Positions 26,360-51,087 of a stretch of 64,000 nucleotides of DNA are shown in pieces; position 1 is the stretch's first letter; each line of letters starts with the position of its first letter. The translations under genes and the position numbers were made by a program. This DNA comes from Burkholderiales bacterium (GTDB taxonomy: Bacteria; Pseudomonadota; Gammaproteobacteria; Burkholderiales; SG8-39). A model generated the notes under the pieces. It made no database searches and was not told the DNA's origin. It saw only the letters and a program-made list of their open reading frames with translations. The DNA is taken from the NCBI GenBank assembly GCA_035308765.1, contig DATGGA010000064.1, forward strand, positions 39,310 to 103,309, written 5' to 3'.

Positions 26360-26371
26360 CCGGCTTCCCCT

Positions 26372-29025: not shown

Positions 29026-29054
29026 GCGCTTTGCACCAAGTCATTGATCTGGAA

Positions 29055-29081
29055 GGGGGCGGTGCAAACCGCCCCCTTTTT
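29055..29081 (+). terminator. intrinsic terminator/attenuator between pstS and pstC
   Basis: gggggcgg-tgcaaa-ccgccccc followed by ttttt. Perfect 8-bp GC stem. Confidence 0.7.
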
Positions 29082-29130
29082 GATCGCGCCGCCGCCGCGC
29101 CCCCTTACAATTTACCCGCTTGAAACCTCG

Positions 29131-31019: not shown

Positions 31020-31027
31020 AACAAGGA

Positions 31028-31885: not shown

Positions 31886-31893
31886 GAGGCGGC

Positions 31894-32604: not shown

Positions 32605-32624
32605 AGGGAGGCAGCGGCGCCGCC

Positions 32625-33332: not shown

Positions 33333-33353
33333 CGGGCTCGCTGCGGGCGTGAC

Positions 33354-34592
33354 GTGAGCTGGCTCGAAATCGGTCTGGCACTGCTGGTGGCCGGTCTTGC
33401 GGCAGCGCTCTGGCTGAACCTGCGCGAATTCCGAAAATTGCGGCACTGGGCATCGCAGTCCAGGCTCAGCGACCCGCCGGAAGCCGCAGGCGCCTGGGGC
33501 GAAGTGTTCAATCTGCTGCACCGGCATCGGCGCGCCATGCTCAAGCGGAGGCGCGAACTTGCGCAGCTGATGGTCCGCTCGCGCCGCGGCGCGCAGGCGC
33601 TGCCCTACGGCGTCGCCGTGCTGGACGCCGACTATCGCCTCGACTGGTGCAACGACGCCGCGCGCGAACACCTGGGCGTGGACCCGGAGCGGGACCGCAA
33701 GCAGCCGGTCGTCAACATGGTGCGCGCACCCGAATTCGTCGAATACCTGCGCGCGGCGGATTTCTCCGAGCCGGTCCGGCTGGGCTCGCCGGGCGGCAGG
33801 CGCACGCTGTCGCTGCAGATCGTTTCCTTCGGCGACGAAGAACACCTGCTGCTGTCCCAGGACGTCACGGGTGCCGTGCAGGTAGAGGCGATGCGGCGCG
33901 ATTTCGTCGCCAACGTCTCGCACGAACTGCGCACGCCTCTTACGGTGCTGGCAGGATTCCTGGAGACCATCCAGGACCTGAAGCTGGACGCCTCGCGCGT
34001 GCGCGACTACGTCGGCCTGATGGCGCCCCAGGCCGAGCGCATGAAGCACCTGATAGACGACCTGCTCACGCTTTCCGCGCTGGAACATGCGCCGCCGCCG
34101 CCCGACGCCGAGCGCATCGCCCTGCGACCGCTGTTGCAGCGGGTGCGCGCCGAGGCCGAGGCACTGTCGAGCGGCAAGCATCGCATAATGCTGGAAGTGG
34201 CGGGCGAGCATGACCTGCTCGGCGCCGAGAGCGAGATCGCCAGCGCATTCGTCAACCTGGTGTCCAACGCGGTGCGCTACACGGCTGCCGGCGGGGAAAT
34301 CCGCCTGCTCTGGCATTCGACCGATGGCGGCGCGGAGTTCTCCGTAGAGGACACCGGTATCGGCATCGACCCAGAGCATCTGCCGCGCCTTACCGAGCGC
34401 TTCTACCGCGTGGACCGCGGCCGCTCGCGCGAGACCGGAGGCACCGGCCTAGGCTTGTCGATCGTGAAGCATGCGCTGGCGCGGCACCAGGGCACGCTGC
34501 TGATCGACAGCGCGCCGGGCAAGGGCAGCCGCTTCACCGCGCGCTTCCCGGCAGCGCGGCTTGGCCCGGTGGCGCAAAAAATCCCGGGCTGA
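33354..34592 (+). CDS. phoR: phosphate regulon sensor histidine kinase PhoR
   Basis: GTG start. N-terminal TM helix, PAS-like region, H-box FVANVSHELRTPL, and ATPase N/G boxes. Confidence 0.87.
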   Translation: MSWLEIGLALLVAGLAAALWLNLREFRKLRHWASQSRLSDPPEAAGAWGEVFNLLHRHRRAMLKRRRELAQLMVRSRRGAQALPYGVAVLDADYRLDWCNDAAREHLGVDPERDRKQPVVNMVRAPEFVEYLRAADFSEPVRLGSPGGRRTLSLQIVSFGDEEHLLLSQDVTGAVQVEAMRRDFVANVSHELRTPLTVLAGFLETIQDLKLDASRVRDYVGLMAPQAERMKHLIDDLLTLSALEHAPPPPDAERIALRPLLQRVRAEAEALSSGKHRIMLEVAGEHDLLGAESEIASAFVNLVSNAVRYTAAGGEIRLLWHSTDGGAEFSVEDTGIGIDPEHLPRLTERFYRVDRGRSRETGGTGLGLSIVKHALARHQGTLLIDSAPGKGSRFTARFPAARLGPVAQKIPG

Positions 34593-34594
34593 CC

Positions 34595-35047
34595 ATGGAT
34601 CTCATTCTCTGGCGTCACGCTGACGCGGAACCCGGCAGCCGCGATCTCGAGCGCAAGCTCACCGCCAGGGGCCGCAAGCAGGCCGAAAGGATGGCCAAGT
34701 GGCTGGTCGCGCGGCTGCCGGGCCGCTATACGGTGCTGGTGAGTCCCGCGCGCCGCGCGCGCGAGACCGCCGATGCGCTGGCCATTCGCTACAGGATCGT
34801 CGAGCGGCTTGCGCCCGGCGCGGCGCCGGGAGACATTTTGAAGGACGCCGGCTGGCCGTCGCACAAGGGCGCGGTGGTTGTCGTCAGCCACCAGCCGGAC
34901 CTGGGCCAGGTCGCGGCGCTGCTCGCTTCCGGCAGCGTGGCCGACTGGTCGGTGAAAAAGGGCGGCCTGTGGTGGCTGAGCAACCGCGAGCGCGGCGGCA
35001 AGATCCAGGTGGTGGTGCGCGCAGTGCTCGCGCCCGACCTGATCTAG
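34595..35047 (+). CDS. sixA: SixA-type phosphohistidine phosphatase
   Basis: 150 aa histidine-phosphatase fold (LILWRHADAE...VSPARRARETA). Confidence 0.7.
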   Translation: MDLILWRHADAEPGSRDLERKLTARGRKQAERMAKWLVARLPGRYTVLVSPARRARETADALAIRYRIVERLAPGAAPGDILKDAGWPSHKGAVVVVSHQPDLGQVAALLASGSVADWSVKKGGLWWLSNRERGGKIQVVVRAVLAPDLI

Positions 35048-38842: not shown

Positions 38843-39208
38843 ATGGAAAGTCCCTACAAGGGCAAGACCGGATTGCGCCGGCTGCTGAACGCTGCCGGCT
38901 ATTCGTTCTCCGGGCTGGCAGCGGCGGCCCGCCACGAGGATGCCTTTCGCCAGGAGCTGATTCTCTCCGCGGTCATGGTGCCGCTTGGCCTCTGGCTGGG
39001 CCAGAGCGGCGTCGAGCGCGCCATGCTGGTGGGCAGCGTGCTGCTGGTGCTGATCGTCGAACTGCTCAATTCCGCCGTGGAGGCGACCGTGGACCGCGTG
39101 TCGCTCGACGACCACAGCCTGGCCAAGCGCGCCAAGGACATCGGCAGCGCCGCGGTGATGCTCGCGCTCGCCAACGTCGCAGTGATCTGGCTCCTGATCC
39201 TGGTTTAA
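38843..39208 (+). CDS. dgkA: diacylglycerol kinase
   Basis: 121 aa, three TM helices. Motifs GYSFSGL...E.AFRQE and VELLNSA.E. Its stop codon lies inside the first heptamer of the downstream Pho-box array. Confidence 0.85.
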   Translation: MESPYKGKTGLRRLLNAAGYSFSGLAAAARHEDAFRQELILSAVMVPLGLWLGQSGVERAMLVGSVLLVLIVELLNSAVEATVDRVSLDDHSLAKRAKDIGSAAVMLALANVAVIWLLILV

Positions 39209-39258
39209 CCGGGCTGTAACCGATCCGTCATCGAAGTTTCATGCGGGCAGGGCATCGT
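39203..39258 (+). promoter_or_regulatory. tandem Pho boxes (4 phased heptamers) plus -10 upstream of GT4 glycosyltransferase A
   Basis: GTTTAAC-cggg-CTGTAAC-cgat-CCGTCAT-cgaa-GTTTCAT (39203-39242, strict 11-bp register), 10 nt, then CATCGT (39253-39258). Confidence 0.6.
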
Positions 39259-39279
39259 CCTGTCCGCATGGAACAGCGA

Positions 39280-40446
39280 ATGCGGATCGCGATGGTGAGC
39301 GAGACCTACCCGCCCGAGGTGAACGGCGTCGCGCGCACGGTCGCCCTGATGGCGGAAGGATTGCACGCCCTCGGCCACGAAATACAGCTGGTGCGGCCGC
39401 GACAGGGGCCGGCGGAGCGTGCGCTCGACGAGCCGCGGTTCCGCGAGCTGCTGCGTCCGGGAATCCGCATTCCGCGCTACCCGCAGTTGCGCATGGGGCT
39501 GCCCTCCAGGGGTGCGCTGCTGCAGGCCTGGAAGAAGGCGCGGCCAGAGGTGGTGCACATCGCCACCGAGGGGCCACTCGGCTCATCGGCGCTGTCCGCG
39601 GCGCGCGCGCTGGCGATCCCGGTCGCGACTGATTTTCATACCAACTTTCACGCCTACAGCGGCCATTACGGTTTTCCGTGGCTCGAACGCGCGGTCGCGG
39701 CGTACCTGCGCCGCTTCCACAACCGGGCCGACTGCACCATGGTGCCGACGGACGAGATGGCGCAGGACCTGGCGCGGCTCGGCTTCGAAAAGCTGCGCGT
39801 GGTAGGGCGTGGCGTGAATTCCGCGGTGTTTTCTCCCGCCAAGCGCCGCGCTGAACTGCGCGCCGAATGGGGGGCTGACGACGACACGCCGGTGGCGCTG
39901 TGCGTCAGCCGCTTCGCGCCGGAAAAGAATTTCCCACTGGTGCTGGACGCCTACCGCGCGATGCGCGCCGTGCGACCCGAAACGCGCCTGGTGCTGGTCG
40001 GCGACGGCCCGATGACCGAAGAACTGAAACGCGAGCACCTGGGCTGCGTGGTCGCCGGGCGCCTGGTCAACGGCGAGTTGTCGGCCCATTACGCCTCGGC
40101 CGACATTTTTCTTTTTCCCAGCACTAGCGAGACCTTCGGCAATGTCACGATGGAGGCGATGGCGAGCGGCCTCGCAGTCGTGGCCTACGACTACGCGGCG
40201 GCCCGCCAGCACATCGTGCACGGCCGCTCGGGGCTGCTGGCGCGGGTCGACGACCGCATCAGCTTCATCGAGCACGCAGCGGCGCTGGCGCGCGATCTGC
40301 CCCGTGCCCGGACGCTCGGACGCCAGGCGCGCGCCACCGCCGAACCGCTGGGCTGGGACAGGGTAGTGGCCGATTTCGCGTCAGTGCTGGCCGATACTAT
40401 GACTGCGCCGGGATCCGCAATGCGAGAGAGCCATGCCGCGGCTTGA
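39280..40446 (+). CDS. GT4-family (GT-B fold) glycosyltransferase A, Agt/DAG-glycosyltransferase-like
   Basis: N-terminal MRIAMVSETYPPEVNGVA, C-terminal EX7E motif (ETFGNVTMEAMASG). The ATG at 39241 is rejected because it lies inside the Pho box; the ATG at 39268 is also possible. Paralogue of 45142..46407. Confidence 0.8.
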   Translation: MRIAMVSETYPPEVNGVARTVALMAEGLHALGHEIQLVRPRQGPAERALDEPRFRELLRPGIRIPRYPQLRMGLPSRGALLQAWKKARPEVVHIATEGPLGSSALSAARALAIPVATDFHTNFHAYSGHYGFPWLERAVAAYLRRFHNRADCTMVPTDEMAQDLARLGFEKLRVVGRGVNSAVFSPAKRRAELRAEWGADDDTPVALCVSRFAPEKNFPLVLDAYRAMRAVRPETRLVLVGDGPMTEELKREHLGCVVAGRLVNGELSAHYASADIFLFPSTSETFGNVTMEAMASGLAVVAYDYAAARQHIVHGRSGLLARVDDRISFIEHAAALARDLPRARTLGRQARATAEPLGWDRVVADFASVLADTMTAPGSAMRESHAAA

Positions 40447-40966
40447 CGTCAGCCTGGAAATGATCCAGCGCTGGGACGAGCGCACTTGCGCGAAATTCAA
40501 CCGCGCGATCCGGGTGCGCGCGCTGCTGCAACTGTTCCGCGCCGTGAGCTGGGTGGGGAACGGCATCTTCTGGTACGCGCTGATGCTTGGCCTGCTGCTC
40601 ACCTATGGCGCGGACGCGGCGCTGCCGGTCCTCCATATGGTCGGCGTCGGCCTGCTCTGCACGCTCCTGTACCGCCTGCTGAAGAAAGGAACTCTGCGCC
40701 CGCGGCCGTTCGAAGTGCACGCGCACATTGCGGCCGGCACGGTGCCGCTCGACCGGTTCAGTTTCCCATCCGGGCATACGCTGCATGCGGCGGCGTTCAC
40801 GCTCATCGCGACGGCGTATTTTCCGGAGCTCGCGCTGCTGCTGGTCCCGGTCACGCTTGCAGTAGCCGCTTCGCGCGTCGTTCTCGGCCTGCACTACCCG
40901 AGCGATGTGCTGGCGGGCGCCGCGATCGGCGCCGCGGTCGCATTTAGTTCTCTCGGCCTCGCTTAG
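40433..40966 (+). CDS. PAP2-family lipid phosphatase
   Basis: All three acid-phosphatase motifs are present: KKGTLRPRP, PSGH, SRVVLGLHYPSD. Polytopic. Start overlaps the GT4-A stop by 14 nt (same operon). Confidence 0.8.
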   Translation: MPRLDVSLEMIQRWDERTCAKFNRAIRVRALLQLFRAVSWVGNGIFWYALMLGLLLTYGADAALPVLHMVGVGLLCTLLYRLLKKGTLRPRPFEVHAHIAAGTVPLDRFSFPSGHTLHAAAFTLIATAYFPELALLLVPVTLAVAASRVVLGLHYPSDVLAGAAIGAAVAFSSLGLA

Positions 40967-41784
40967 GCATCTCGCGCACGGCGTTCCGGCACCGGCGCGT
41001 GAATGAGCGCGATGCTGAGCCACACCGCGACGCTGAAATACAGCGACATCCACGCCACTTCGCTATGCCAGTCCTGCCAGCGGCGGGCAACGATCCAGCG
41101 GTCCGAGACGTCCAGCAGGCCCTGGGCGACGCTCAGGTAGTGGCGCCCGCTCGCCTCGTCTGCCAGCCAGCGCGCCCAGTACATCGGCACGTCGACCAGG
41201 AACATGAAGGCGACGTAGGCGATGCCCGCCGCGCACCAGGCGGCCAGCAGCGGCCGCAGCGAGGCGTTGCAGCGCGGCCAGATCCAGAGCAGGCTCGTGA
41301 CCAGCAGCCCTGCGCTCAGGGCCCAAATCGGTTCTTCGAGCACGTGCCCGAGGTTCGACGTGGTGAGCACCGAGTACCACGAGCAGATCTCCGCGACCGC
41401 GATGAGCGGGACCACCACCACCGAGGTGACCCTGCCGGCGCCGCTGCCCGTGGCGCGCGAAATTTCCCGCAGCAGCAGCGCCCACTGCGCGGCGAAGCAC
41501 AATTCGGCGAAAGTCGCCACGGAGCGTCCGACGATGACGCTGGAGAGCCAGGTGTCGAACAGGCAGAAGCGCTGTATGTCATAGACCGGCAGCGCCGAGC
41601 GGTAAGCGCAGCCGAGCACGTAGCCCGCCGACAGGAGAAGCTGCGCGCGGCGCAGGTAGTAGGCTTCAGGCGACAGGGTTGCCTGGCGCCGCTCGAGCGC
41701 GGCGGCCGACAGCGCCCATGCAAGGATGTTGAACCCCGCGACGGAGCAGAGGAAAAACCACCACCAGAAAACGTCTGCTGACAT
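40963..41784 (-). CDS. polytopic membrane protein, unknown function
   Basis: 273 aa, about 7-8 hydrophobic segments, Trp-rich. No family recognised by eye. Lies 49 nt downstream of the PSD-like gene on the same strand. Confidence 0.5.
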   Translation of the reverse strand: MSADVFWWWFFLCSVAGFNILAWALSAAALERRQATLSPEAYYLRRAQLLLSAGYVLGCAYRSALPVYDIQRFCLFDTWLSSVIVGRSVATFAELCFAAQWALLLREISRATGSGAGRVTSVVVVPLIAVAEICSWYSVLTTSNLGHVLEEPIWALSAGLLVTSLLWIWPRCNASLRPLLAAWCAAGIAYVAFMFLVDVPMYWARWLADEASGRHYLSVAQGLLDVSDRWIVARRWQDWHSEVAWMSLYFSVAVWLSIALIHAPVPERRARDA

Positions 41785-41833
41785 GAACCTGCAATGTTCG
41801 CATGCTAGGCCCGTGCCGGCTGTTACGGTTTTC

Positions 41834-42676
41834 TTAAGGTTCGGGCAGGCGCATCAGCGGCTCGCCCATGCGGATGAGCGAACCTGCCGTCACATTTCCG
41901 CAAAGTGCGAAGCCGCGCGGCGCGAACACGAGAATCGTCGAGCCATGCTGGAACCAGCCCATTTCCTCGCCCTTGGCGAAGCGCGCATCGCAATGGATCA
42001 CGTTCGGACCGCGATAGCGCAGGTGCAGCAGCACGTCGAGAAAATGCAGGCGGATGCTCGCGACGAGAACCGCGGCCACCGGGACCAGCAGGATTTCGTG
42101 TCCGCCCGCCTCGAGCCTGGTGCGCAACAGGGCGCGCTCGTTCTTGCAGAACAGTTTCTCGACGCGCCGCAGCGCGATCGGGTTCACGTTCCAGGTATCG
42201 CCCGAGAAGTAGGTTACCTGCCCGATCCGGCAGTCGTGCGGCGCGTGGAAGCGGTGGTACATGCTCGAAGTGATCCGCAGCGTGGCGTAGGTCGCGTCGC
42301 GGAAATCGTCCGCGAGCGTGGCGCTGCCGACCAGGTCCAGTATCGTGTAGGGGAAGCCCTTCGCCTGGATCAACTGGCCGTCCTCGACCCGCCCGCAGGC
42401 GCCGACGATCGCGTCGCAGGGACTGGCCAGCAGCGCCGGATCGGGATCCACCGGCCGCGCGCCGTGCTTCAGCTCGCGGATGAAGCAGTCGTGCAGGCTG
42501 CGAAAGCTGGCCTGCTTCGCTTCATCGAGGCGCAGGTCCGCGAACAGCCGCCAGGCCGCGAGCGACAGATCGCGCACCAGCGGCAGTTCGAGCTGGCTGA
42601 ACCAACCCATGAAGCGCGTAAACGCGTGCCGGGGAATGCGGTTGGTGATGAGGAAATTGAGGTCTTCCGTCACCAT
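41834..42676 (-). CDS. phosphatidylserine decarboxylase-family (pyruvoyl-dependent) proenzyme
   Basis: 280 aa with the self-cleavage motif GST in WFQHGSTILVF. N-terminal LITNRIPR. YHRFHAP motif. Confidence 0.8.
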   Translation of the reverse strand: MVTEDLNFLITNRIPRHAFTRFMGWFSQLELPLVRDLSLAAWRLFADLRLDEAKQASFRSLHDCFIRELKHGARPVDPDPALLASPCDAIVGACGRVEDGQLIQAKGFPYTILDLVGSATLADDFRDATYATLRITSSMYHRFHAPHDCRIGQVTYFSGDTWNVNPIALRRVEKLFCKNERALLRTRLEAGGHEILLVPVAAVLVASIRLHFLDVLLHLRYRGPNVIHCDARFAKGEEMGWFQHGSTILVFAPRGFALCGNVTAGSLIRMGEPLMRLPEP

Positions 42677-42700
42677 GCTGTAACCCGGGGGCGGTAAACA
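42667..42700 (+). promoter_or_regulatory. Pho box plus -10 upstream of class-III aminotransferase (overlaps PSD-like start codon)
   Basis: CCGTCAC-catg-CTGTAAC (42667-42684), 10 nt, then TAAACA (42695-42700). The spacer 'catg' contains the minus-strand ATG of the PSD-like gene. Confidence 0.5.
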
Positions 42701-42708
42701 GGCCGCAA

Positions 42709-44358
42709 ATGAACGAGACCTATCTTCTCTACGGCATCGGCGCCGCCGCGGCCATGCTGACCATCCCGGCGCTCAAGACGCGCCTGGAGCTGTCGAAGGC
42801 CAAACATCCTTCGCTTACGGGCCATTCCCGCATGGCGCGCCGGGTCGCCGGACTGATTCCCTATTACGGCTACGACGAGCAGCGGGTTTTCCGCTCCGAC
42901 GGCGCACCCGACGAGATCGAGGCGCGGCGCCGGGCGGGGTTCGCCCGACTCGCCGAGCTCTACCGCCGGCGCTTTGCGAAGACGGCGGCGCTCACCAATG
43001 AGGCGCGCAAGGGAATGTCGGACCTGCAGTTCACCAGCGCCTACCGCGTGCCGTTCCAGTACAGCAGGTATGTGCGCAGGCACCTCGGGTTCGGGGCATT
43101 CGTGGAATCGTCCAGCGGCGTGACGGTCACGGACCTCGATGGCAACTGCTTCTACGATCTCACAGGGTCCTACGGGGTCAACGTGTTCGGCTACGACTTT
43201 TACAAGTCGTGCATGGCCGAGGGCAGCGCACGCGCCGCGATGCTGGGACCCGTGCTTGGGGCCTATCATCCCGCCGTCGCGTACAACGTGCGCCGGTTGC
43301 GCGAGATCTCCGGCCTGGACGAGGTGTCCTTTCACATGTCCGGCACCGAGGCGGTGATGCAGGCGGTGCGCCTCGCGCGGTATCACACACGCCGTTCCCA
43401 CCTGGTGCGCTTCTGCGGCGCCTACCATGGCTGGTGGGAAGACGTGCAGCCCGGCATCGGTAACCCGGTGCCGCCGCACAATACCTACACGCTGAAGGAC
43501 ATGGACGAGGACTCTTTGCGCGTGCTGCGTCGGCGCCGCGACATTGCCTGCGTGCTGGTGAACCCGCTGCAGGCCCTGCATCCGAACATGAATGCGCCCG
43601 GCGACGGCTCGCTGGTGGACAGCACGCGCCACGCGCACTTCGACCGGGCCGGCTATGCAAAGTGGCTGAAGCGGCTGCGCGAAGTCTGCACCGAGCGCGG
43701 CGTCGTGCTGATCTTCGACGAGGTGTTCGTCGGCTTCCGTATCGCACCCGGCGGCGCGCAGGAATATTTCGGCGTGCGCGCCGACCTGGTCACCTACGGC
43801 AAGACGCTGGGCGGCGGATTTCCGGTTGGCGCGGTCTGCGGGCGCGCCGGTCTCATGAAGCGCTTCCGAGAAGACCGGCCGGCCGACATCTGCTTCGCGC
43901 GCGGCACGTTCAATTCGCATCCCTACGTGATGGGCGCGATGCAGGTGTTCCTCGAACGTCTGGAAAGCGCGGATCTGCGCGAGCCGTATCGCGGTCTCGA
44001 CGAGTGCTGGGATCGCCGCGCCGGGCGGCTCAATGAACGGCTCAGGGAAGCGGGGTTGCCCGTGCAGGTAGCGAACCTGTCGTCGATCTGGACCGTCTGC
44101 TATACGCAGCCGTCGCGCTACAACTGGATGCTGCAGTACTACATGCGCACCGAAGGGCTGGCGCTCAGCTGGGTCGGCACCGGTCGGCTGATTTTCAGCC
44201 TCGACTATGCGGAGGCCGATTTCGAAGCGGTCGCGGAACGGTTCATTGCCGCCGCCACGGCCATGCAGAGGGATGGCTGGTGGTGGTCGGACCCCGCGCT
44301 GACCGACAAGTCGATCAAGCGCGGGATACTCAGGGAAATGCTCTCGCAACGGTTCTGA
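42709..44358 (+). CDS. class-III PLP aminotransferase (glutamate-1-semialdehyde aminomutase-like) with ~90-100 aa N-terminal extension
   Basis: 549 aa. Motifs SGTEAVMQAVRLAR, DEVFVGFR, and the PLP-lysine region TYGKTLGGGFPVGA. The N-terminal ~100 residues have no HemL counterpart. An alternative ATG is at 42754. Confidence 0.8.
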   Translation: MNETYLLYGIGAAAAMLTIPALKTRLELSKAKHPSLTGHSRMARRVAGLIPYYGYDEQRVFRSDGAPDEIEARRRAGFARLAELYRRRFAKTAALTNEARKGMSDLQFTSAYRVPFQYSRYVRRHLGFGAFVESSSGVTVTDLDGNCFYDLTGSYGVNVFGYDFYKSCMAEGSARAAMLGPVLGAYHPAVAYNVRRLREISGLDEVSFHMSGTEAVMQAVRLARYHTRRSHLVRFCGAYHGWWEDVQPGIGNPVPPHNTYTLKDMDEDSLRVLRRRRDIACVLVNPLQALHPNMNAPGDGSLVDSTRHAHFDRAGYAKWLKRLREVCTERGVVLIFDEVFVGFRIAPGGAQEYFGVRADLVTYGKTLGGGFPVGAVCGRAGLMKRFREDRPADICFARGTFNSHPYVMGAMQVFLERLESADLREPYRGLDECWDRRAGRLNERLREAGLPVQVANLSSIWTVCYTQPSRYNWMLQYYMRTEGLALSWVGTGRLIFSLDYAEADFEAVAERFIAAATAMQRDGWWWSDPALTDKSIKRGILREMLSQRF

Positions 44359-44359
44359 A

Positions 44360-44968
44360 TCAGCCGTGCTGCCGGTGCGGCATCGGGTCGATCAGCTCGC
44401 CGCGCAAGAGATACATCGGCGCCTTGTGATAGAGCTTCAGGTCGTGGAACGGGTCGGTCAGGATCTTTATCATCCATACCAGCCCCGTCTTTACGTCCCG
44501 GATGAAGAACAGGTGCACCGTGCGGAACAGCAGGCCGCCTACACCCAGCGCGAGCCAGATCATGGCCAAGTGATGCACGTAGTCGTAGGTCGTGACCGGT
44601 AGCTCGAACAGGCCGAACAGCGTGGGATCGGCAAGCAGCGGCAGCGGGGCCAGCGCCCAGGCCACGTACAGCAGTATCTTGCGGCGCAAGTTGTATCCGA
44701 TCTTGATTTCCTCCTTGTACTCGTGCGTCGCCTGATTGACGTGGTCGTAACCCTTCGGCTCGAAGAAAAAGTGTCCCGACTGGCGCGCGGTCATTGCGAT
44801 CAGCCAGCCGATCAATGCAGCGGCGACCGGATAAACAAACAGCATCGCGTAGGCGCACAGGAAGCTCGCCGCGCTGACGAAATGCAGCGACTGGTTGATC
44901 CGGCTGTGGTGATAGTAGCGGTGATCGTCCCAGCGCTGGATTTGGAGGGTGCGGAGAATTTCTTTCAT
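44360..44968 (-). CDS. polytopic membrane protein, possible DUF962/Mpo1-like (HxxxxNxxxH)
   Basis: 202 aa from the ATG at 44968, preceded by gaggag. About 4-5 TM segments. The motif YHHSRINQSLHF resembles the Mpo1-like family signature; this assignment is tentative. Confidence 0.5.
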   Translation of the reverse strand: MKEILRTLQIQRWDDHRYYHHSRINQSLHFVSAASFLCAYAMLFVYPVAAALIGWLIAMTARQSGHFFFEPKGYDHVNQATHEYKEEIKIGYNLRRKILLYVAWALAPLPLLADPTLFGLFELPVTTYDYVHHLAMIWLALGVGGLLFRTVHLFFIRDVKTGLVWMIKILTDPFHDLKLYHKAPMYLLRGELIDPMPHRQHG

Positions 44969-45012
44969 CTTGTCTCCTCGGCGGTTAAGTCGGAAACCTG
45001 ACAACGGGCCCG

Positions 45013-45068
45013 AGGATACGGGGGAATTGCGACAGTTCCGTAAAACGGAAATGACAAATCGACGACAG
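45013..45068 (-). promoter_or_regulatory. tandem Pho boxes (4 phased heptamers) plus -10 upstream of membrane protein 44360..44968
   Basis: Minus strand reads CTGTCGT-cgat-TTGTCAT-ttcc-GTTTTAC-ggaa-CTGTCGC (45068-45029), 10 nt, then TATCCT (45018-45013). Confidence 0.6.
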
Positions 45069-45079
45069 GGGGGCCAGTG

Positions 45080-45135
45080 CCGTCGCAATTCATTCACGCG
45101 GCGGTCATCGGGGCGTCGCGCGGCGGATCCATCAT
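45080..45135 (+). promoter_or_regulatory. tandem Pho-box-like array (4 phased heptamers) plus -10 upstream of GT4 glycosyltransferase B
   Basis: CCGTCGC-aatt-CATTCAC-gcgg-CGGTCAT-cggg-GCGTCGC (45080-45119), 10 nt, then CATCAT (45130-45135). Same layout as the GT4-A promoter, but the heptamers are weaker. Confidence 0.45.
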
Positions 45136-45141
45136 CGCGCC

Positions 45142-46407
45142 ATGCGAGCCGGGATGCGCGACGACCAGGCACCGATCCAGATCGAGCAGCTGGGCGGCGT
45201 TCGCCGATCGCTGCGCGTCGCGGTGGTGACCGAAACCTACCCGCCGGAAATCAACGGCGTTGCGCTGACCGCCGCGCGCTTCGTTGAAGGCCTGCGCCAG
45301 CGCGGTCACCAGATTCAACTCATCCGCCCGCGGCAAGACAGTACCGACCACGCGGATGCCGACGACCGTTTCCAGGAAGTGCTCATGCGGGGCGTCGCGA
45401 TTCCGCGCTATCCGAATCTGAGGATGGGCCTCCCGGCCAAGCGCGCACTCGAGCAGCTCTGGACTTACTGCCGCCCCGACGTCGTGCACATAGTCACCGA
45501 GGGCCCTCTGGGCTGGTCGGCCCAGCGGGCCGCCCTCAAGCTGCGCATCCCCGCAGTCTCGGATTTCCGCACCAATTTCCACGCCTACAGCCGGCACTAC
45601 GGCATCGGCTGGCTCGGGAAGCCGATCCTCGCCTACCTGCGCAAATTCCACAACCGTACCTTGTGCACCATGGTGCCAACGGAATCCATGCGCGCCGACC
45701 TCGCTGCGCTCGGCTTCTATCGCCTGCGCGTAGTGGCGCGCGGAGTGGACACGGCGCTTTTCGACCCGGCGCGACGCAGCACGGCGCTACGCGCCAGCTG
45801 GGGTGCGGCGCCGGAAGACCCCGTGCTGCTGCATGTAGGCCGCCTCGCGCCGGAAAAGAATCTCGATGCGCTGCTTGCCGCGTTCGAGGCGGCTCGCGAG
45901 CGTGCGCCGCGCGCCAGGCTGGTGCTGGTCGGCGACGGCCCGTCCCGGGGCGAAATGCAGGCGCGCTGCCCGGAAGCGATCCTCGCCGGGACGCGGCGCG
46001 GCGAGGAACTTGCCGCGCACTACGCTTCGGGGGACATGTTCCTGTTTCCGAGCCTGACGGAGACCTACGGCAACGTGACCGTGGAGGCGCTGGCGAGCGG
46101 CCTGGCCGTGATCGCCTACGACTACGCCGCCGCAGCGGCGCATATCCGTCACGGGCATAACGGCCTGCTGGCGGATTTCGACAACACGGCGGAATTCGCT
46201 GCGCTCGCGGCCGGGCTGGTCACAAATCTGTCCCAGATTCGGGCGCTGGCCGTCAAAGCGCGGCAGGAAGTGCTGGCGCACGACTGGGGGCGCGTGGTGC
46301 AGCAGCTCGAAGGCGTTCTGGAGGTCGCGGCCGGTACGGGCAGCGGACGGTTCTACGGCAGTTCCGGTGGCCGCCGCGCGCGCAGTCCCATGCCCCAGAG
46401 CACGTAG
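45142..46407 (+). CDS. GT4-family glycosyltransferase B (paralogue of 39280..40446)
   Basis: Collinear with GT4-A over its whole length (VVTETYPPEINGVA, PRYPNLRMGLP, TDFRTNFHAYS, LAPEKN, EX7E ETYGNVTVEALASG). Start is ATG 45142 or 45154. Confidence 0.8.
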   Translation: MRAGMRDDQAPIQIEQLGGVRRSLRVAVVTETYPPEINGVALTAARFVEGLRQRGHQIQLIRPRQDSTDHADADDRFQEVLMRGVAIPRYPNLRMGLPAKRALEQLWTYCRPDVVHIVTEGPLGWSAQRAALKLRIPAVSDFRTNFHAYSRHYGIGWLGKPILAYLRKFHNRTLCTMVPTESMRADLAALGFYRLRVVARGVDTALFDPARRSTALRASWGAAPEDPVLLHVGRLAPEKNLDALLAAFEAARERAPRARLVLVGDGPSRGEMQARCPEAILAGTRRGEELAAHYASGDMFLFPSLTETYGNVTVEALASGLAVIAYDYAAAAAHIRHGHNGLLADFDNTAEFAALAAGLVTNLSQIRALAVKARQEVLAHDWGRVVQQLEGVLEVAAGTGSGRFYGSSGGRRARSPMPQST

Positions 46408-47114
46408 CCCGAGACGGCATAGGCCAGGCACAGCAGGAACAGTACGACCGGCGGGCGAAGCGAGACCACCGCAAGGCCGGCGACGAACGCCAGCATCACC
46501 CAGAAAGGCACCGCCCGCTTGAGGTTGAATTCCTTGAAGCTGTAGAACGGCACGTTGGTCACCATGGTGATGCCTGCGTACATCGTGAACACCCAGGCGA
46601 TCATGCTCAGCCACAATTCGCGGTCGATGCCGAAGTCGTCGAATACCCACACCAGGCCCGCCAGCAGCGCAGCGGCCGCCGGACTCGGGATGCCCTGGAA
46701 GTAGCGTCTATCGACGACATCCATGTTTACGTTGAAACGCGCCAGCCGCAGCGCGGCGCCGGCGCAGTATACGAAGGCGGCGATCCAGCCGAGCTTGCCC
46801 ATGCCTTTCAGCGCCCAGACGTACATGACGAGCGCAGGCGCGGCGCCGAATGAAACCATGTCCGACAGGCTGTCGTACTGTGCGCCAAACTCGCTTTGCG
46901 TATGCGTGAGCCGCGCGATGCGGCCGTCCAGCCCGTCGAGAACCATGGCGACGAAGATGGCGATCGCCGCAAGTTCGAAATGTTCGTTCATCGCCTGCAC
47001 GATGGCGTAGAAGCCGGAGAACAGCGAAGCGGTGGTGAAAAGGTTCGGCAGCAGATAGATGCTGCGCCGGCGGAACAGGCTCAGGCTGCGGCCGCCCTCC
47101 TCGAAGTCTCCCAT
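46353..47114 (-). CDS. pssA: CDP-alcohol phosphatidyltransferase, PssA-like (CDP-diacylglycerol--serine O-phosphatidyltransferase type II)
   Basis: Perfect D-G-x2-A-R-x8-G-x3-D-x3-D motif (DGLDGRIARLTHTQSEFGAQYDSLSD). N-terminal YLLPNLFT. Polytopic. Confidence 0.8.
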   Translation of the reverse strand: MGDFEEGGRSLSLFRRRSIYLLPNLFTTASLFSGFYAIVQAMNEHFELAAIAIFVAMVLDGLDGRIARLTHTQSEFGAQYDSLSDMVSFGAAPALVMYVWALKGMGKLGWIAAFVYCAGAALRLARFNVNMDVVDRRYFQGIPSPAAAALLAGLVWVFDDFGIDRELWLSMIAWVFTMYAGITMVTNVPFYSFKEFNLKRAVPFWVMLAFVAGLAVVSLRPPVVLFLLCLAYAVSGYVLWGMGLRARRPPELP

Positions 47115-47148
47115 CGCATATCCCTGTTTTGCCGGGGTGACGGGCGAG

Positions 47149-47183
47149 ACCCTACAGGGAGAGTTGCGACAATCTGATGACAG
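47149..47183 (-). promoter_or_regulatory. Pho box plus -10 upstream of pssA-like gene
   Basis: Minus strand reads CTGTCAT-caga-TTGTCGC (47183-47166), 11 nt, then TAGGGT (47154-47149). Confidence 0.55.
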
Positions 47184-47191
47184 CGCCGCAA

Positions 47192-47225
47192 GATTAACGA
47201 TCGTGTCATATCCGGAGACTAGCCT
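47192..47225 (+). promoter_or_regulatory. Pho box plus -10 upstream of PlcP/LpxH-like metallophosphoesterase
   Basis: GATTAAC-gatc-GTGTCAT (47192-47209), 10 nt, then TAGCCT (47220-47225). Divergent from the pssA-like box only 9 bp away. Confidence 0.55.
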
Positions 47226-47264
47226 AGCAGCTCAATTGCTTACGCCGGGAACCTGAGGTTATTT

Positions 47265-48083
47265 GTGCCGCACGTCCGCGCCATCTTCCTCTCGGACATC
47301 CACCTCGGCACGCCCGCCTGCCAGGCCGGGCGGCTGCTCGAATTCCTCAAGGCGCACGAGTCGGAGTACCTGTTCCTGGTCGGCGACATCATCGATTTCT
47401 GGGCGATGCAGCGCCGCGGCGTGTACTGGTCTGCCGAGCAGAACACCGTGGTGCAGAAGATCCTCAAGCGCGCGCGCCACGACGTCAAGGTGATCTTCGT
47501 GCCCGGCAACCACGACGAAGCCGCGCGCGAGCACACCGGCACCTCGTTCGGCAACATCCGCGTCGAGCGCGACTATGTGCACCTGGCCGCCGACGGCAGG
47601 CGCTACCTGCTGATCCATGGCGACGAGTTCGACCAGGTCACGCGCTATCACCGGTGGCTGGCGATCCTTGGCGACCACGCATACTCGATGGTCGTGCGCC
47701 TGAACATGTGGCTGTCCTGGCTGCGACGCACGCTCGGTATTCCCGGCTACTGGTCGCTCTCGGGCTACGTGAAGAAGAAGGTGAAGAGGGCGGTCAGCTT
47801 CGTCTTCGACTTCGAGGATTCGGTTCTGCGCCACGCGAGGGAGCGCGGCGTGGACGGGGTCATCTGCGGCCACATCCATTCCGCGACGATCCGCGACCAC
47901 GGCGGCATCACCTACATCAATTGCGGCGACTGGGTGGACAGCTGCACCGCGATCGTCGAAGATGAGAACGGCTCCATGGCGCTCGTGCACTGGGGGGGCG
48001 AAGACGAAATAGCGGAGCGCCTTCCTCCTTCGGCGGCGAGCTCCGCTCTGAATGAAGCCAGGGAAGACGCGGTCTTATGGTGA
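47265..48083 (+). CDS. LpxH-like calcineurin-type metallophosphoesterase, candidate PlcP-type phospholipase C
   Basis: GTG start after gagg. Metallophosphoesterase motifs SDIHLG, GDIIDFW, PGNHDE, IHGDEFD, GHIH. Its Pho-box promoter and neighbouring DAG-related genes favour a lipid-remodelling role over housekeeping LpxH. Confidence 0.75.
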   Translation: MPHVRAIFLSDIHLGTPACQAGRLLEFLKAHESEYLFLVGDIIDFWAMQRRGVYWSAEQNTVVQKILKRARHDVKVIFVPGNHDEAAREHTGTSFGNIRVERDYVHLAADGRRYLLIHGDEFDQVTRYHRWLAILGDHAYSMVVRLNMWLSWLRRTLGIPGYWSLSGYVKKKVKRAVSFVFDFEDSVLRHARERGVDGVICGHIHSATIRDHGGITYINCGDWVDSCTAIVEDENGSMALVHWGGEDEIAERLPPSAASSALNEAREDAVLW

Positions 48084-48433
48084 CGCTCGATATGTTCCGC
48101 AATGCCAAAGACGCGAGGCCCTACCTGGCCGGCGAGGCGATATTCCGCGCCGGCGACCGGGGCGACAACATGTACGTGGTGGTAGAGGGTGAAGTGAGCG
48201 TTTCGGCCAACGGCAGGGAACTTGAGCTGCTCGGACCCGGCGGCGTATTCGGCGAGATTGCGCTGATCGACAACGGACCGAGGTCGGCTGACGCGATCGC
48301 GGTAACGGATTGCCGCGTGGTCCCCATAGACGAGAACTGGTTCAAGTTCCTCGTGCAGCAAACGCCGTATTTCTCGCTCCAGATCATGCGCGTGATGGCC
48401 GACCGGCTGCGGCGCAGCATGCCCGCGCCATAA
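48077..48433 (+). CDS. stand-alone cyclic nucleotide-binding domain protein
   Basis: 118 aa with the CAP effector domain pattern (IFRAGDRGDNMYVVVEGEV...GGVFGEIALID..PRSADA). ATG overlaps the upstream stop (ATGGTGA). Confidence 0.65.
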   Translation: MVTLDMFRNAKDARPYLAGEAIFRAGDRGDNMYVVVEGEVSVSANGRELELLGPGGVFGEIALIDNGPRSADAIAVTDCRVVPIDENWFKFLVQQTPYFSLQIMRVMADRLRRSMPAP

Positions 48434-48624
48434 AAAATTGGCGGCTCCTGCGGGCCGCCAAAACCAACTCTCAAGTGGCGCTGAGGCAAGCCAGTGCCTC
48501 GGGAGCCTTGCGGACTGCCAGTTTCCCTTGCCGTGCTTGTGCGTGCGCTTCTTGGCTGCGTGCCCGGCCGAGAGACCAGCTGGAGGACCTTGAAATCATT
48601 CACGTCTGACTCTTATTTGCAGCG

Positions 48625-48658
48625 CTGTCATGGAGCGGTAATCCATGGTGGGTAGCGT
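48625..48658 (+). promoter_or_regulatory. Pho box plus -10 upstream of EAL-CBS-GGDEF gene
   Basis: CTGTCAT-ggag-CGGTAAT (48625-48642), 10 nt, then TAGCGT (48653-48658). 40 nt upstream of the GTG at 48698. Confidence 0.5.
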
Positions 48659-48697
48659 GGAAAGCGATCGTCAGTCCAATCCGAATACGAGTTCACG

Positions 48698-50572
48698 GTG
48701 CTCAATCAAGCCTTCGAGCAAAGCCTTTTTTTGCGGCTCCGGCATCACGGTGCCTCGGGGCAGGCCGTGGACAATGACCTGCCGCGCGAACCGGAACGGC
48801 GCCTGCTCGGCGAATGCCTGACACAGGGCAGACTGCGGACGGTGTTCCAGCCGATCCTTGATTTGCGGCGGGGTTCCGTATTCGCCCATGAGGCGCTGTC
48901 GCGCGGTCCGGCCGGCACGGCGTTCGAATCGGCGCTGTCGATATTCCAGCTCGCGCGCGAGCACGGCTTCTCCAGCGACCTGGAACTGGTCGCGGTGCGC
49001 GGTGCTCTCCAGCGGTTCGCCGCCCTGGGCGCGGAAGGCAAGCTGTTCGTGAACTTCAGCGCGCTTGCGCTCGCGGAACGCCGCGTCGGGGGCGGGATCA
49101 TCCTCGAATACCTGCGGGGTTGCGGGCTCTCGCCCAAGCAGGTGGTGATCGAGCTTTCCGAAAACCATGCGATCGTCGATGCCTCGCCGGCATGGGCGGC
49201 GCTGCTCCAGTGCAGGAAGGAAGGATTCGAAATCGCCATCGACGACCTGGGTGAAGGATTCGCCAGCCTGCGCCTGTGGTCGGAATTGCGCCCGGAGTAC
49301 GTCAAGTTGGACCGGCATTTCATCCACGGCATCCATAGCGACCCCGTAAAGCTGCAGATCGCGCGCGCGATCCAGCAGATCGCGCAGGTCGCGGGCGGCG
49401 CCGTGATCGCCGAGGGTATCGAGGAGACGGCCGATTTCCAGGTGGTGCGCGATCTCGGCATCAGCTACTGCCAGGGCTACCTGATCGGCTACCCTGCCGC
49501 GGCTCCGGACGAGGCTGCGCCGGTCGAATTGTGGCAACGCTTGTCGCTCGAACCGGTGCTGGCGTTTCCGCTTCCCGGCCACAGCGTCAATCGGGTCACC
49601 GCCAGGAAACTGCTGAAGCGCGTCGATCCGGTTTCGCCGGCGACGGAAAACGACGTCGTCTACGCGCGTTTCGAGAGCGAGCCCGATCTTCAGGTCATAC
49701 CAGTGGTCGACGGGGCGGTGCCGCGCGGCCTGATCAACCGCAACTCGATCATCGACCGCTTCGCGCGGCCTTACCGGCGAGAACTGTTCGGCCGCAAGCC
49801 TTGCGCGGCATTCATGAACGGCAAGCCCCTGATCGTCGACGCCGATATCAGCATCCAGAAAATCAGCATGATGCTGACCGAGGGCGACGACCACGCGCTT
49901 TACGACGGCTTCATCATTGTCGAAGGAGGCCGCTACGCCGGCGTCGGTACCAGCCAGAATCTGATCCGCGAGATCAATGCCCAGCAGATCGTCGCCGCCC
50001 GTTACGCCAATCCCCTGACGCTGCTGCCGGGGAACGTGCCGATCGCCGAGCACATTTCGCGGCTTCTGACGCAGGGGCGCGATTTCGTCGCCTGCTATGC
50101 GGATCTCGACAATTTCAAGCCCTTCAACGACGTCTACGGCTATCACCGCGGCGACGAAGTGATCCAGCTCGCGGCGCGCGCCCTTGCCGACGCCTGCGAT
50201 CCGCAACTCGACTTCTGCGGCCACGTCGGCGGCGACGATTTCGTCGTCGTCATGCAGAGCGCGGACTGGGAAACCCGCTGCCAGCGCGCGCTGACGACCT
50301 TCGGCGAGCGCGTCACGGCGCTGTTCTCTAGCGAGGACCGCGAGCGCGGCGGCTTCCTCGCGGAAGACCGGCGCGGCGAGAAGCAGAAATTCGGCCTGAC
50401 CAGCCTGTCCATCGGCGTCGTTCCGGTGGAGCGCGCCACTTTCAACACGCATTCGGAGGTGGCGGCGGCGGCGACCGAGGCGAAGAAGATGGCCAAGCGC
50501 GAGCCCGGCAACGCGCTGTTCGTCGAACGTCGCCGCTACCCGACGAGCTCGCTCAGGCCGCTCGCCGAGTAA
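48698..50572 (+). CDS. c-di-GMP signalling protein: EAL phosphodiesterase - CBS pair - GGDEF-like (GGDDF) domain
   Basis: EAL motifs (HEALSRG, DDLGEGFASL, EGIE). A central CBS pair. The C-terminal cyclase-like domain has DLDNFKPFND and HVGGDDFVVV. Confidence 0.8.
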   Translation: MLNQAFEQSLFLRLRHHGASGQAVDNDLPREPERRLLGECLTQGRLRTVFQPILDLRRGSVFAHEALSRGPAGTAFESALSIFQLAREHGFSSDLELVAVRGALQRFAALGAEGKLFVNFSALALAERRVGGGIILEYLRGCGLSPKQVVIELSENHAIVDASPAWAALLQCRKEGFEIAIDDLGEGFASLRLWSELRPEYVKLDRHFIHGIHSDPVKLQIARAIQQIAQVAGGAVIAEGIEETADFQVVRDLGISYCQGYLIGYPAAAPDEAAPVELWQRLSLEPVLAFPLPGHSVNRVTARKLLKRVDPVSPATENDVVYARFESEPDLQVIPVVDGAVPRGLINRNSIIDRFARPYRRELFGRKPCAAFMNGKPLIVDADISIQKISMMLTEGDDHALYDGFIIVEGGRYAGVGTSQNLIREINAQQIVAARYANPLTLLPGNVPIAEHISRLLTQGRDFVACYADLDNFKPFNDVYGYHRGDEVIQLAARALADACDPQLDFCGHVGGDDFVVVMQSADWETRCQRALTTFGERVTALFSSEDRERGGFLAEDRRGEKQKFGLTSLSIGVVPVERATFNTHSEVAAAATEAKKMAKREPGNALFVERRRYPTSSLRPLAE

Positions 50573-51053: not shown

Positions 51054-51087
51054 CAGTCATAAAAGTTTCACGCCGAGCCTCTAGCAT
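51054..51087 (+). promoter_or_regulatory. Pho box plus -10 upstream of phnH-phoD-NPP operon
   Basis: CAGTCAT-aaaa-GTTTCAC (51054-51071), 10 nt, then TAGCAT (51082-51087). The ATG at 51097 lies only 9 nt past the -10. Confidence 0.6.

Follow-up and report, generated by a model that had tools for sequence, protein, structure and literature searches.

Pho-box-linked decarboxylase, aminotransferase and Mpo1-like genes beside PlcP-Agt lipid remodelling genes in a Burkholderiales bacterium: a candidate amine-lipid pathway

Introduction

Swapping phospholipids for phosphorus-free lipids is a main bacterial answer to phosphate scarcity, and the locus described here raises the question of whether a run of lipid-type genes lying among the phosphate (Pho) genes of a Burkholderiales bacterium belongs to the known routes of this exchange or makes a further lipid. 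The locus, referred to below as the island, occupies positions 38843-48433 of a stretch of 64,000 nucleotides (assembly GCA_035308765.1, contig DATGGA010000064.1, positions 39,310 to 103,309 of the forward strand), hereafter the window, in whose coordinates all positions are given unless another contig is named. An earlier reading of these letters (the original prediction) had proposed that the whole segment of about 9.5 kb encodes one Pho-regulated system for a possibly amino-modified lipid head group. What we found to be conserved is smaller, namely a trio of genes encoding a long-type, pyruvoyl-dependent paralogue of phosphatidylserine (PS) decarboxylase (PSD), a class-III pyridoxal-phosphate (PLP) aminotransferase and a polytopic membrane protein related to Mpo1. 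The lipid island itself, its conserved Pho boxes, its fit to the PlcP-Agt scheme and a co-conserved core all speak for the proposal, while the parts of it that invoked a single 9.5-kb system and a special PssA had to be given up.

Results

In the window, the trio consists of the PSD gene (41834-42676, minus strand; PF02666, E = 3e-52), the aminotransferase gene (42709-44358, plus strand; 549 amino acids (aa), PF00202) and the gene of the Mpo1-like (DUF962-related) protein with its histidine motif (44360-44968, minus strand; 202 aa). The map used here is based on the listing of open reading frames (ORFs), on Pfam and NCBIfam scans and on independent gene calls, which were all in agreement, and by all of them the genes listed in the original prediction are present. 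Two of its details changed, as the 7-8 transmembrane protein given as one item with the PSD is a separate gene, both being on the minus strand, and the segment does not hold only lipid-type enzymes, its last gene (48077-48433) encoding a protein that binds cyclic nucleotide monophosphates (cNMP).

Relatives were collected by searching species-representative genomes with the aminotransferase. At least 600 matches were obtained, and the best 80 of them, 68-91% identical, were studied, counts being made on the loci with enough flanking sequence. The top listed match (91% identity) lies in a genome bin labelled Bordetella sp., and the 80 loci belong to Burkholderiales (Polynucleobacter, Variovorax, Curvibacter, Rubrivivax, Roseateles) and Rhodocyclales, but also to Alphaproteobacteria (Methylocella, Methylocapsa, Rhodoplanes, Acetobacteraceae), Steroidobacteraceae and one Polyangia bin. 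In metagenomes, the aminotransferase family comprises more than 8000 sequence clusters. Cultured candidate carriers of the trio are Variovorax sp. OV329, Curvibacter gracilis ATCC BAA-807, Polynucleobacter spp., Dechloromonas sp. H13, Roseateles albus and Sphingomonas parapaucimobilis YK209.

Results showed that a long PSD gene adjoins the aminotransferase gene in 72 of 72 loci and the Mpo1-like gene does so in 71 of 72, a linkage that spans Beta-, Alpha- and Gammaproteobacteria. In some loci all three share a strand, with the Mpo1-like gene first, the aminotransferase gene second and the PSD gene last, and from locus to locus their percent identities rise and fall together (r = 0.55-0.76). 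An orthologue of GT4-B, one of the two family-4 glycosyltransferases (GT4) of the island, is also adjoining in 41/62 loci, and a GT4 gene of any kind is found within 5 kb of the aminotransferase in 46/53. The other island genes were recovered less often: PlcP within 5 kb in 13/53 loci and, near the aminotransferase, the membrane protein TM273 in 5/45, dgkA in 4/45 and PssA in none of the 45 evaluable loci. Because of these adjacency counts, the conserved unit is the trio, usually with an adjacent Agt-type GT4, and not the whole 9.5 kb; co-conservation across genomes, which the original prediction had made a condition, holds for the core and fails for a fixed gene set. The GT4 beside the trio is Agt2-like in Betaproteobacteria and Agt1-like in Alpha- and Gammaproteobacteria, and on a Sphingomonas plasmid no GT4 gene stands next to the trio.

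The members of the trio carry the public annotations "glutamate-1-semialdehyde aminomutase", "archaetidylserine decarboxylase" and "hypothetical protein". Our full-text literature searches returned no paper on the trio, and a paper on PlcP of Methylosinus mentions none of the trio genes. Built from known enzyme folds, the trio is very widespread and, as a Pho-box-linked unit beside Agt genes, appears to be undescribed in the searchable literature. The earlier statement that the decarboxylase, the aminotransferase, the PssA-like enzyme and two membrane proteins lie outside the described pathways can be kept for the PSD, the aminotransferase and the Mpo1-like protein, which are co-conserved and for which no describing paper was found, but not for PssA, which is of housekeeping type (see below).

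We then consider the promoters. The E. coli-type Pho-box pattern CTGTCAYNNNNCTGTCAY was searched with at most 2 mismatches across the window, giving 5 sites in 64 kb against 0.78 expected, a number reached by 0 of 100 shuffles. All 5 sites are within 39.2-48.7 kb, each in a promoter region, and stand upstream of GT4-A, the aminotransferase gene, the Mpo1-like gene, pssA and a gene for an EAL-GGDEF protein. Before GT4-A there are Pho-box-like repeats made of three half-sites spaced by 11 bp (39214-39242, plus strand; 2 mismatches at 39214-39231 and 3 at 39225-39242), the repeats being placed 38 nt before the called start at 39280. The aminotransferase gene is faced by a box at 42667-42684 (plus strand), and the divergent promoter region at 45051-45108 holds one box toward the Mpo1-like gene (45051-45068, minus strand) and one with 3 mismatches toward GT4-B (45091-45108, plus strand). 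The two remaining boxes face pssA (47166-47183, minus strand) and the EAL-GGDEF gene (48625). Another site with 3 mismatches lies at 51054, and a weak box, also with 3 mismatches, lies upstream of pstS at 27909. The "six Pho-box promoters" counted before are roughly right, with 5 sites at up to 2 mismatches plus the 3-mismatch sites at 45091 and 51054.

The boxes are also found in other genera. In the divergent spacer between the Mpo1-like gene and GT4, a box with at most 2 mismatches is present in 30 of 47 loci and one with at most 3 in 45 of 47, compared with 2/235 and 14/235 random segments of equal length and with 0.2-0.9% and 4-8% of composition-matched shuffles, respectively. When up to 3 mismatches are allowed, the spacer between the PSD and aminotransferase genes contains a box in 30 of the 74 loci, compared with 12 among 370 segments of background, and all 30 boxes point toward the aminotransferase gene. 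As for the box facing pssA, its position and orientation are kept in the 4 relatives that share the arrangement (L001, L002, L086, L087). With boxes at promoters, correctly oriented and conserved in orthologous promoters, the island is predicted to be under PhoB control.

What the three proteins look like bears on what they may do. The long PSD matches PF02666 with 177.7 bits and passes TIGR00163 (158.1 bits, cut-off 111.75), and it aligns to E. coli Psd (7cnw/6l06) with its N-terminus included. Across 79 homologues D88, H141, H144 and the autocleavage site G245-S246-T247 are invariant, in agreement with the pyruvoyl enzyme and GST cleavage motif first proposed, and so are R134 and N163, which occupy the positions of the phosphate-contacting Tyr137 and Ser166 of E. 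coli Psd. An Arg at that phosphate-contacting position occurs in 15% of PSDs (PMC7952604). The long PSD is predicted to be a second paralogue and not the housekeeping PS decarboxylase, as one related contig (L101) has both a short and a long gene.

The aminotransferase (PF00202, 111 bits, cut-off 30.5) has in its "TYGKTLGGG" motif a Schiff-base Lys that aligns with the Lys of the aminotransferase (AMT) domain of MycA, from mycosubtilin synthase. This domain is its closest solved relative (6kfm, E = 3e-44), followed by glutamate-1-semialdehyde aminomutases. The MycA AMT domain introduces an amino group at the keto position of a fatty-acyl intermediate; the protein of the trio differs from it in being free-standing and apparently membrane-anchored, with a conserved extension of about 100 aa and with no carrier protein or synthetase nearby. 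This N-terminal extension, already noticed in the original prediction, is real, since homology to known enzymes begins only near residue 107-130. The first 20 aa or so of the protein are hydrophobic and vary in sequence, and behind them comes the conserved block RLELSKAKHxSLxGHSRMA; this indicates a membrane anchor with the catalytic domain in the cytoplasm. HemL was considered as the identity of this protein and rejected: it scores 173.6 bits with TIGR00713 (cut-off 527.3) and 180.4 with NF000818 (cut-off 398), and its 549 aa, with N-terminal anchor and extension, exceed the normal length of about 430.

The third protein has the predicted HxxxxNxxxH motif (H20-x4-N25-x3-H29), and H16, H20, N25, H29, H66 and E70 are invariant, as are the HxxxxNxxxH motif and a second one, GHFxFE. 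It is about 70% conserved across classes. Its match to PF06127 reaches 19.9 bits, under the threshold of 24, and all 29 aligned members match weakly, under the threshold or close to it, with a best E of 1.3e-5. PF06127 (Mpo1/DUF962) is a family of Fe2+-dependent 2-hydroxy-acid dioxygenases, whose yeast relative oxidises 2-hydroxy acids.

Accessory genes were found in part of the loci. In alphaproteobacterial loci and on a replicon of Sphingomonas parapaucimobilis, the Mpo1-like gene is followed by a methyltransferase gene whose product matches the family of the phospholipid N-methyltransferase PmtA best by far (136-141 bits, against 65-76 for the next family), and several of these loci add a domain of the MprF-flippase type (185 bits). 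By their families, the PmtA-like and MprF-like genes point to an amine lipid as product. In 20 betaproteobacterial loci GT4-B is closely followed, on its downstream side, by the lysophospholipid transporter gene lplT, which in most of them is encoded on the other strand (for example L060 13697-14998, scoring 508 bits where the cut-off is 297). TM273, a seven-helix membrane protein of 273 aa (40963-41784, minus strand), gave no match in Pfam or NCBIfam, and its at least 6600 homologue clusters are all named "hypothetical". Its AlphaFold2 model (pLDDT 80) has 8 predicted helices, 7 of them long, and a Foldseek comparison of the model with the PDB gave no match with E < 0.01, only generic seven-helix bundles (E > 0.02, TM-score 0.3-0.5). 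Considering that TM273 stands beside the trio in 12 of the 80 loci and in varying positions, alpha- and deltaproteobacterial loci included, we regard it as accessory, possibly a transporter or flippase.

The other half of the island is more familiar. The metallophosphoesterase (47265-48083, plus strand; PF00149 and PF12850) is 51% identical over 237 aa to PA3219 (PlcP) of P. aeruginosa, after which agt1 is the next gene, and its translation has the motifs DxH, GD, GNHD and GHxH. It is far under the cut-offs of the LpxH models (45.2 bits against 134 for NF003743 and 44.6 against 190 for TIGR01854); the gene previously called LpxH-like is PlcP-like instead. By this similarity, it is a predicted PlcP orthologue, that is, a phospholipase C expected to produce diacylglycerol (DAG). 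Its end is overlapped by the gene of the small cNMP-binding protein (48077-48433, plus strand; PF00027, E = 3e-23). The pairing of the two is kept in L001, L002 and L086, and they are probably co-transcribed.

GT4-A (39280-40446, plus strand) and GT4-B (45154-46407, plus strand) are 55% identical to each other and have the domain architecture of Agt enzymes (PF13439 and PF00534). Over about 380 aa, GT4-B is 50% and GT4-A 49% identical to PA0842, recognised by its position beside plcH, plcR and cerN, and the identity to Agt1 is 31-34%. PA0842 is Agt2, for which glucuronosyl-DAG synthase activity was shown experimentally (PMC8528852). The DAG acceptor and the sugar donor of GT4-A and GT4-B, UDP-glucuronate or UDP-glucose, are proposed by analogy with Agt2 only. 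GT4-A has no counterpart in L086 and L087, two syntenic relatives, and is a lineage-specific extra copy. GpgS, the top NCBIfam family of both GT4 proteins, was rejected as their identity, as their scores of 147 and 133 bits fall far short of the cut-off (480) and Agt2 is much closer.

A PAP2 phosphatase gene (40433-40966, plus strand; PF01569, E = 9e-23) overlaps GT4-A by 14 bp; every NCBIfam match of this protein is under its cut-off, and phosphatidate, undecaprenyl diphosphate or lipid A are its candidate substrates. The diacylglycerol kinase gene dgkA (38843-39208, plus strand; PF01219, E = 5e-36) corresponds to dagK of the plcP-agt-dagK operon known in Burkholderia (B. cenocepacia; bioRxiv 10.1101/2023.05.30.542800). 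On account of the identities to PA3219 and PA0842 and of this operon, this half of the island is assigned, by homology, to the known PlcP-Agt-DgkA remodelling system; the proposed fit of the PlcP-like and GT4 genes to the PlcP-Agt scheme was borne out by the same identities of 51% and 49-50%. Compared with the systems of P. aeruginosa (PMC8528852), B. cenocepacia (bioRxiv 10.1101/2023.05.30.542800), and S. meliloti and marine Alphaproteobacteria (PMC4796936), the island has the same PlcP-like protein, Agt2-like GT4s, dgkA and Pho boxes in promoters. It differs by having two Agt2-like paralogues and PAP2, by a plcP set apart from the GT4 genes and paired with the cNMP-binding gene, and by the PSD paralogue, the aminotransferase and the Mpo1-like protein, which in the literature searched were not found reported for that pathway.

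Genes related to cyclic nucleotides recur beside plcP: in the window the cNMP-binding gene is followed by the EAL-GGDEF gene (48077-50572), and in P. aeruginosa plcP-agt1 adjoins the adenylate cyclase gene cyaB together with a small Mpo1-like gene. The product of the latter was tried as an orthologue of the Mpo1-like protein of the trio and discarded, as hhalign aligned only the GHFxFE motif. One Rubrivivax bin carries two full clusters of PSD, aminotransferase, Mpo1-like gene and GT4 (L037 and L039, on contig JAXHKY010000009.1 at about 248 kb and 434 kb), both with a PlcP-like gene about 3 kb upstream.

A question on its own is whether pssA (46353-47114, minus strand) belongs to the system. 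The protein passes the model of CDP-diacylglycerol-serine O-phosphatidyltransferase (TIGR00473, 112.6 bits, cut-off 107) and has the CDP-alcohol motif DGLDGRIAR...GAQYDSLSD. Its relatives were collected by a metagenome scan that returned 80 loci, with gene identities checked by NCBIfam. In 60 of the 80 the homologue stands in the context ilvC - short psd - pssA - leuA, and these are 80-89% identical to the window PssA; a neighbour-joining tree groups the island-linked sequences into a single clade that lies within the housekeeping PssA. Because of this identity and of the tree placement, the window PssA is best taken as an ordinary housekeeping-type PS synthase and no novel enzyme, contrary to the special role that the original prediction had given it.

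Its position can be understood from contig L101 (4145-11272), where ilvC - short psd - pssA abuts GT4-B, the Mpo1-like gene, the aminotransferase gene and the long PSD gene, so that the short housekeeping psd and the long PSD are on one contig, within 5 kb. The long PSD therefore coexists with the housekeeping enzyme, and the order in L101 is likely the ancestral arrangement that explains why pssA is beside GT4-B in the window. The 3' end of pssA overlaps the convergent GT4-B by 55 bp (46353-46407), as it does in L086, L087 and L101. Neither ilvC, short psd, leuA nor a second pssA was found within the 64-kb window; in related Burkholderiales the short psd (PRK05305.1-5, 365-375 bits) is in ilvC-psd-pssA. 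In this lineage PssA would thus be an ordinary PS synthase brought beside the island and under a Pho box. In another group of contigs (L128 2998-8499, and also L126, L130 and L131), pssA immediately precedes the Mpo1-like gene, both being on one strand; the PssA proteins of this group have long tree branches and 75-77% identity to that of the window, which could indicate faster evolution of the island-linked copy.

The flanks of the island (about 65% GC for the window) place it among Pho genes, as the original prediction had it. Directly upstream is a complete master Pho locus (27982-35047), with pstS, pstC, pstA, pstB, phoU, phoB, phoR and a gene for a SixA-like phosphohistidine phosphatase (34595-35047), followed by ppx (minus strand) and ppk. 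Downstream are the EAL-GGDEF gene, phnH, phoD and a gene for an NPP (Phosphodiest-family) phosphodiesterase, and from about 55.1 kb the genes are unrelated. Divergently from pstS (25349-27856, minus strand) lie genes for a succinate-semialdehyde dehydrogenase (790 bits to NF008415) and for a membrane protein of the fatty-acid desaturase family, whose best match is the guanitoxin arginine hydroxylase GntB. These two were considered as members of the pathway and dismissed, as other genomes do not have them together with the trio. In the relative L087 (a contig of 1.35 Mb), a gene for an OlsB-like ornithine-lipid N-acyltransferase is found between ppk and dgkA, the regions of interest being L087 6336-7130 and 15427-19558, and genes for a PhnZ-like HD-domain oxygenase, PhoD and PhoX also belong to the island there. 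As in L087, the island gathers several genes for lipids of phosphate starvation and for phosphorus scavenging.

Discussion

Considering that the PSD and the PmtA-like enzyme are dedicated paralogues that invariably come with the aminotransferase, it can be argued that they act on something else than ordinary PS and phosphatidylethanolamine (PE). We propose, with a probability of about one half, that the trio makes an ethanolamine-type amine head group, resembling that of PE or phosphatidylcholine (PC), on a non-canonical lipid, which would serve as a zwitterionic or cationic surrogate of PE or PC under phosphate starvation. The proposal is built on enzyme families and gene linkage. By orthology, PlcP would cleave phospholipids to DAG, the two Agt2-like enzymes would convert DAG into glucuronosyl- or glucosyl-DAG, and DgkA and PAP2 would interconvert DAG and phosphatidate. 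The Mpo1-like protein would then supply an oxidised (keto or aldehyde) head group, the anchored aminotransferase would aminate it, turning a keto acid into an amino acid, and the long pyruvoyl decarboxylase would remove the alpha-carboxylate to leave a primary amine, by the chemistry that turns PS into PE. In Alphaproteobacteria, a PmtA-like enzyme would N-methylate this amine. The sequence from keto acid to amino acid, amine and methylated amine is chosen because no other linear order accommodates an aminotransferase, an alpha-amino-acid decarboxylase and, in the loci that have one, an N-methyltransferase. The lipid would be made in the inner leaflet and exported by flippase-like proteins (MprF-like, possibly TM273). 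As backbone, a PS-like phospholipid analogue and a phosphorus-free derivative of DAG or glycolipid are both candidates.

More tentatively, and with less confidence than for the amine head group as such, the trio may make a new class of membrane lipid. Its head group, of the ethanolamine or choline type, would be built directly on a lipid through oxidation, transamination and a pyruvoyl-dependent decarboxylation, in a route that bypasses CDP-diacylglycerol-serine chemistry and may involve no phosphorus. Such a lipid would be a PE or PC surrogate of phosphate-starved freshwater and soil Beta-, Alpha- and Gammaproteobacteria (Polynucleobacter, Variovorax, Rubrivivax, Methylocella, Steroidobacteraceae).

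Several known systems resemble this scheme in part. The PssA-Psd(-PmtA) synthesis of PE and PC draws on enzyme families that are also present here, namely a CDP-alcohol phosphatidyltransferase, a PSD of the pyruvoyl type whose catalytic residues are preserved and, in the alphaproteobacterial loci, a PmtA-like methyltransferase, and the decarboxylation chemistry is probably the same; however, the PSD of the trio is a long-type paralogue that coexists with a short psd (L101), is linked to the aminotransferase and the Mpo1-like gene, and has Pho boxes around it. The ArnA/ArnB route to 4-amino-arabinose is a work-alike only, in which oxidation, transamination and loss of a carboxylate give an amine head group that alters charge and is then flipped. 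The families are unrelated: here the aminotransferase is of class III and not of the DegT type, the decarboxylation is pyruvoyl- and not NAD-dependent, an Mpo1-like protein stands in place of a dehydrogenase, and the substrate is probably lipid-bound and not a nucleotide sugar. BtaA/BtaB, for the betaine lipid diacylglyceryl-trimethylhomoserine (DGTS), and OlsBA, for ornithine lipid, are Pho-regulated and give phosphorus-free zwitterionic replacements of PE and PC, with BtaB acting last as N-methylating enzyme. The trio has no sequence relationship with BtaA, BtaB, OlsB or OlsA, and its amine would arise in place by transamination and decarboxylation instead of being imported with an amino acid. 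The GpgSDF system of P. aeruginosa, for glucosaminyl-phosphatidylglycerol synthesis, likewise has a GT4 lipid glycosyltransferase, uses a flippase and makes an amine-bearing lipid (PMC12713373); the island differs from it by the GT4 scores reported above and by having no deacetylase (GpgD) in its gene calls.

Some points weigh against the proposed amine lipid. We could not draw up a full and chemically convincing path by which glucuronosyl-DAG would acquire an alpha-amino acid head group. A scheme in which glucuronosyl-DAG becomes a keto sugar, then an amino sugar, and is finally decarboxylated was rejected because the amine in a pyranoside is not alpha to the carboxylate, which does not suit a pyruvoyl decarboxylase, and because GT4s of either kind, Agt1-like or Agt2-like, are found beside the trio; such pairing weakens the idea of the trio modifying one particular sugar. 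In addition, the GT4 may only be co-regulated with the trio and not act in the same pathway or upstream of it, as the Agt type differs by class and the GT4 is missing beside the trio of Sphingomonas. The substrate of the long PSD may be ordinary PS, as the protein passes the curated PS-decarboxylase model and has an invariant Arg at a phosphate-contacting position. The assignment of the third protein to the Mpo1 family is under the Pfam threshold, and we infer its oxidase role by analogy. Finally, a Pho box can also mediate repression. In P. aeruginosa, phosphate starvation also yields an unidentified glycolipid of m/z 786.8, 2 Da under glucuronosyl-DAG, that comes from neither Agt1 nor Agt2 (PMC8528852). 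An oxidised glucuronosyl-DAG would have this mass, and it is pure speculation that an Mpo1-like protein makes it.

Part of this evidence could be read as a rebalancing of ordinary phospholipid head groups with no new lipid class, by which scarce phosphorus is kept in zwitterionic phospholipids and glycolipids replace phosphatidylglycerol (PG). The long PSD would turn PS into PE, the PS coming in this lineage from the Pho-box-driven PssA, the PmtA-like enzyme would make PC, and the Mpo1-like protein and the aminotransferase would convert another head group into that of PE, such as the glycerol of PG, which would pass through an aldehyde. The named accessory genes, indeed, all encode phospholipid enzymes: a PSD passing TIGR00163, a housekeeping-clade PssA whose Pho box is conserved, PmtA-like and MprF-like proteins and, in 20 loci, LplT. 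The invariant R134 and N163, the pairing of the trio with either Agt type and the trio of L101 lying directly beside ilvC-psd-pssA go in the same direction. However, such a route saves no phosphorus, and as the housekeeping psd and pmtA could just be up-regulated, it leaves unexplained a dedicated paralogue that is linked to the aminotransferase in 100% of loci. A PSD is moreover needless for converting PG into PE, yet it is never missing, and to our knowledge there is no precedent for diol cleavage by an Mpo1-type protein. We therefore regard rebalancing as unlikely, though it is the strongest of the alternatives to the amine lipid.

The same neighbourhood of PlcP, PAP2, DgkA and GT4, together with Pho control, would also suit a catabolic salvage, in which the PSD makes PE from PS, an enzyme of aminotransferase fold strips the amine of PE or phosphoethanolamine (as transaminase or phospho-lyase), the Mpo1-like protein degrades the remnant, and PAP2 splits phosphatidate into phosphate and DAG, the DAG going to the GT4s. 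The class-III fold includes ethanolamine-phosphate phospho-lyases, but the aminotransferase of the trio groups with aminomutases and the MycA AMT domain and not with AGXT2-like lyases. The N-methyltransferase and the flippase of the alphaproteobacterial clusters would be senseless for degradation, PlcP alone removes head groups in one step, and PAP2 and dgkA are near the trio in few loci only; salvage is thus improbable. Least probable by far is a chance neighbourhood, with housekeeping pssA, psd and hemL-like genes merely lying beside Pho-regulated glycolipid genes. The housekeeping clade of PssA, a 64-kb window with no second pssA, short psd or ilvC, and the public annotation of the aminotransferase as glutamate-1-semialdehyde aminomutase are what could suggest it. 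It is largely refuted by the linkage of the trio in 72/72 and 71/72 loci of three proteobacterial classes, by conserved and correctly oriented Pho boxes, by a hemL equivalog score of 174 bits against a cut-off of 527, by LpxH models that are not reached and by the coexistence of long PSD and short housekeeping psd in L101.

Conclusions

In conclusion, the PlcP/Agt/DgkA part of the island is already known and its PssA is ordinary, while the trio as a Pho-box-linked unit appears to be undescribed in the literature searched and offers a tangible starting point toward what is probably a new lipid pathway. The glycolipids made by PlcP-Agt in P. aeruginosa alter the susceptibility to antibiotics and phage (PMC8528852). 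The known routes (PlcP-Agt, BtaAB, OlsBA) may leave some lipids of the cells studied here uncovered, and the trio is carried by abundant freshwater genera such as Polynucleobacter. If the trio does make a new amine lipid, this would add a pathway to the response to phosphate starvation and correct thousands of annotations, and it would provide a gene marker for an unassigned lipid class in the lipidomics of phosphate-limited waters and soils.

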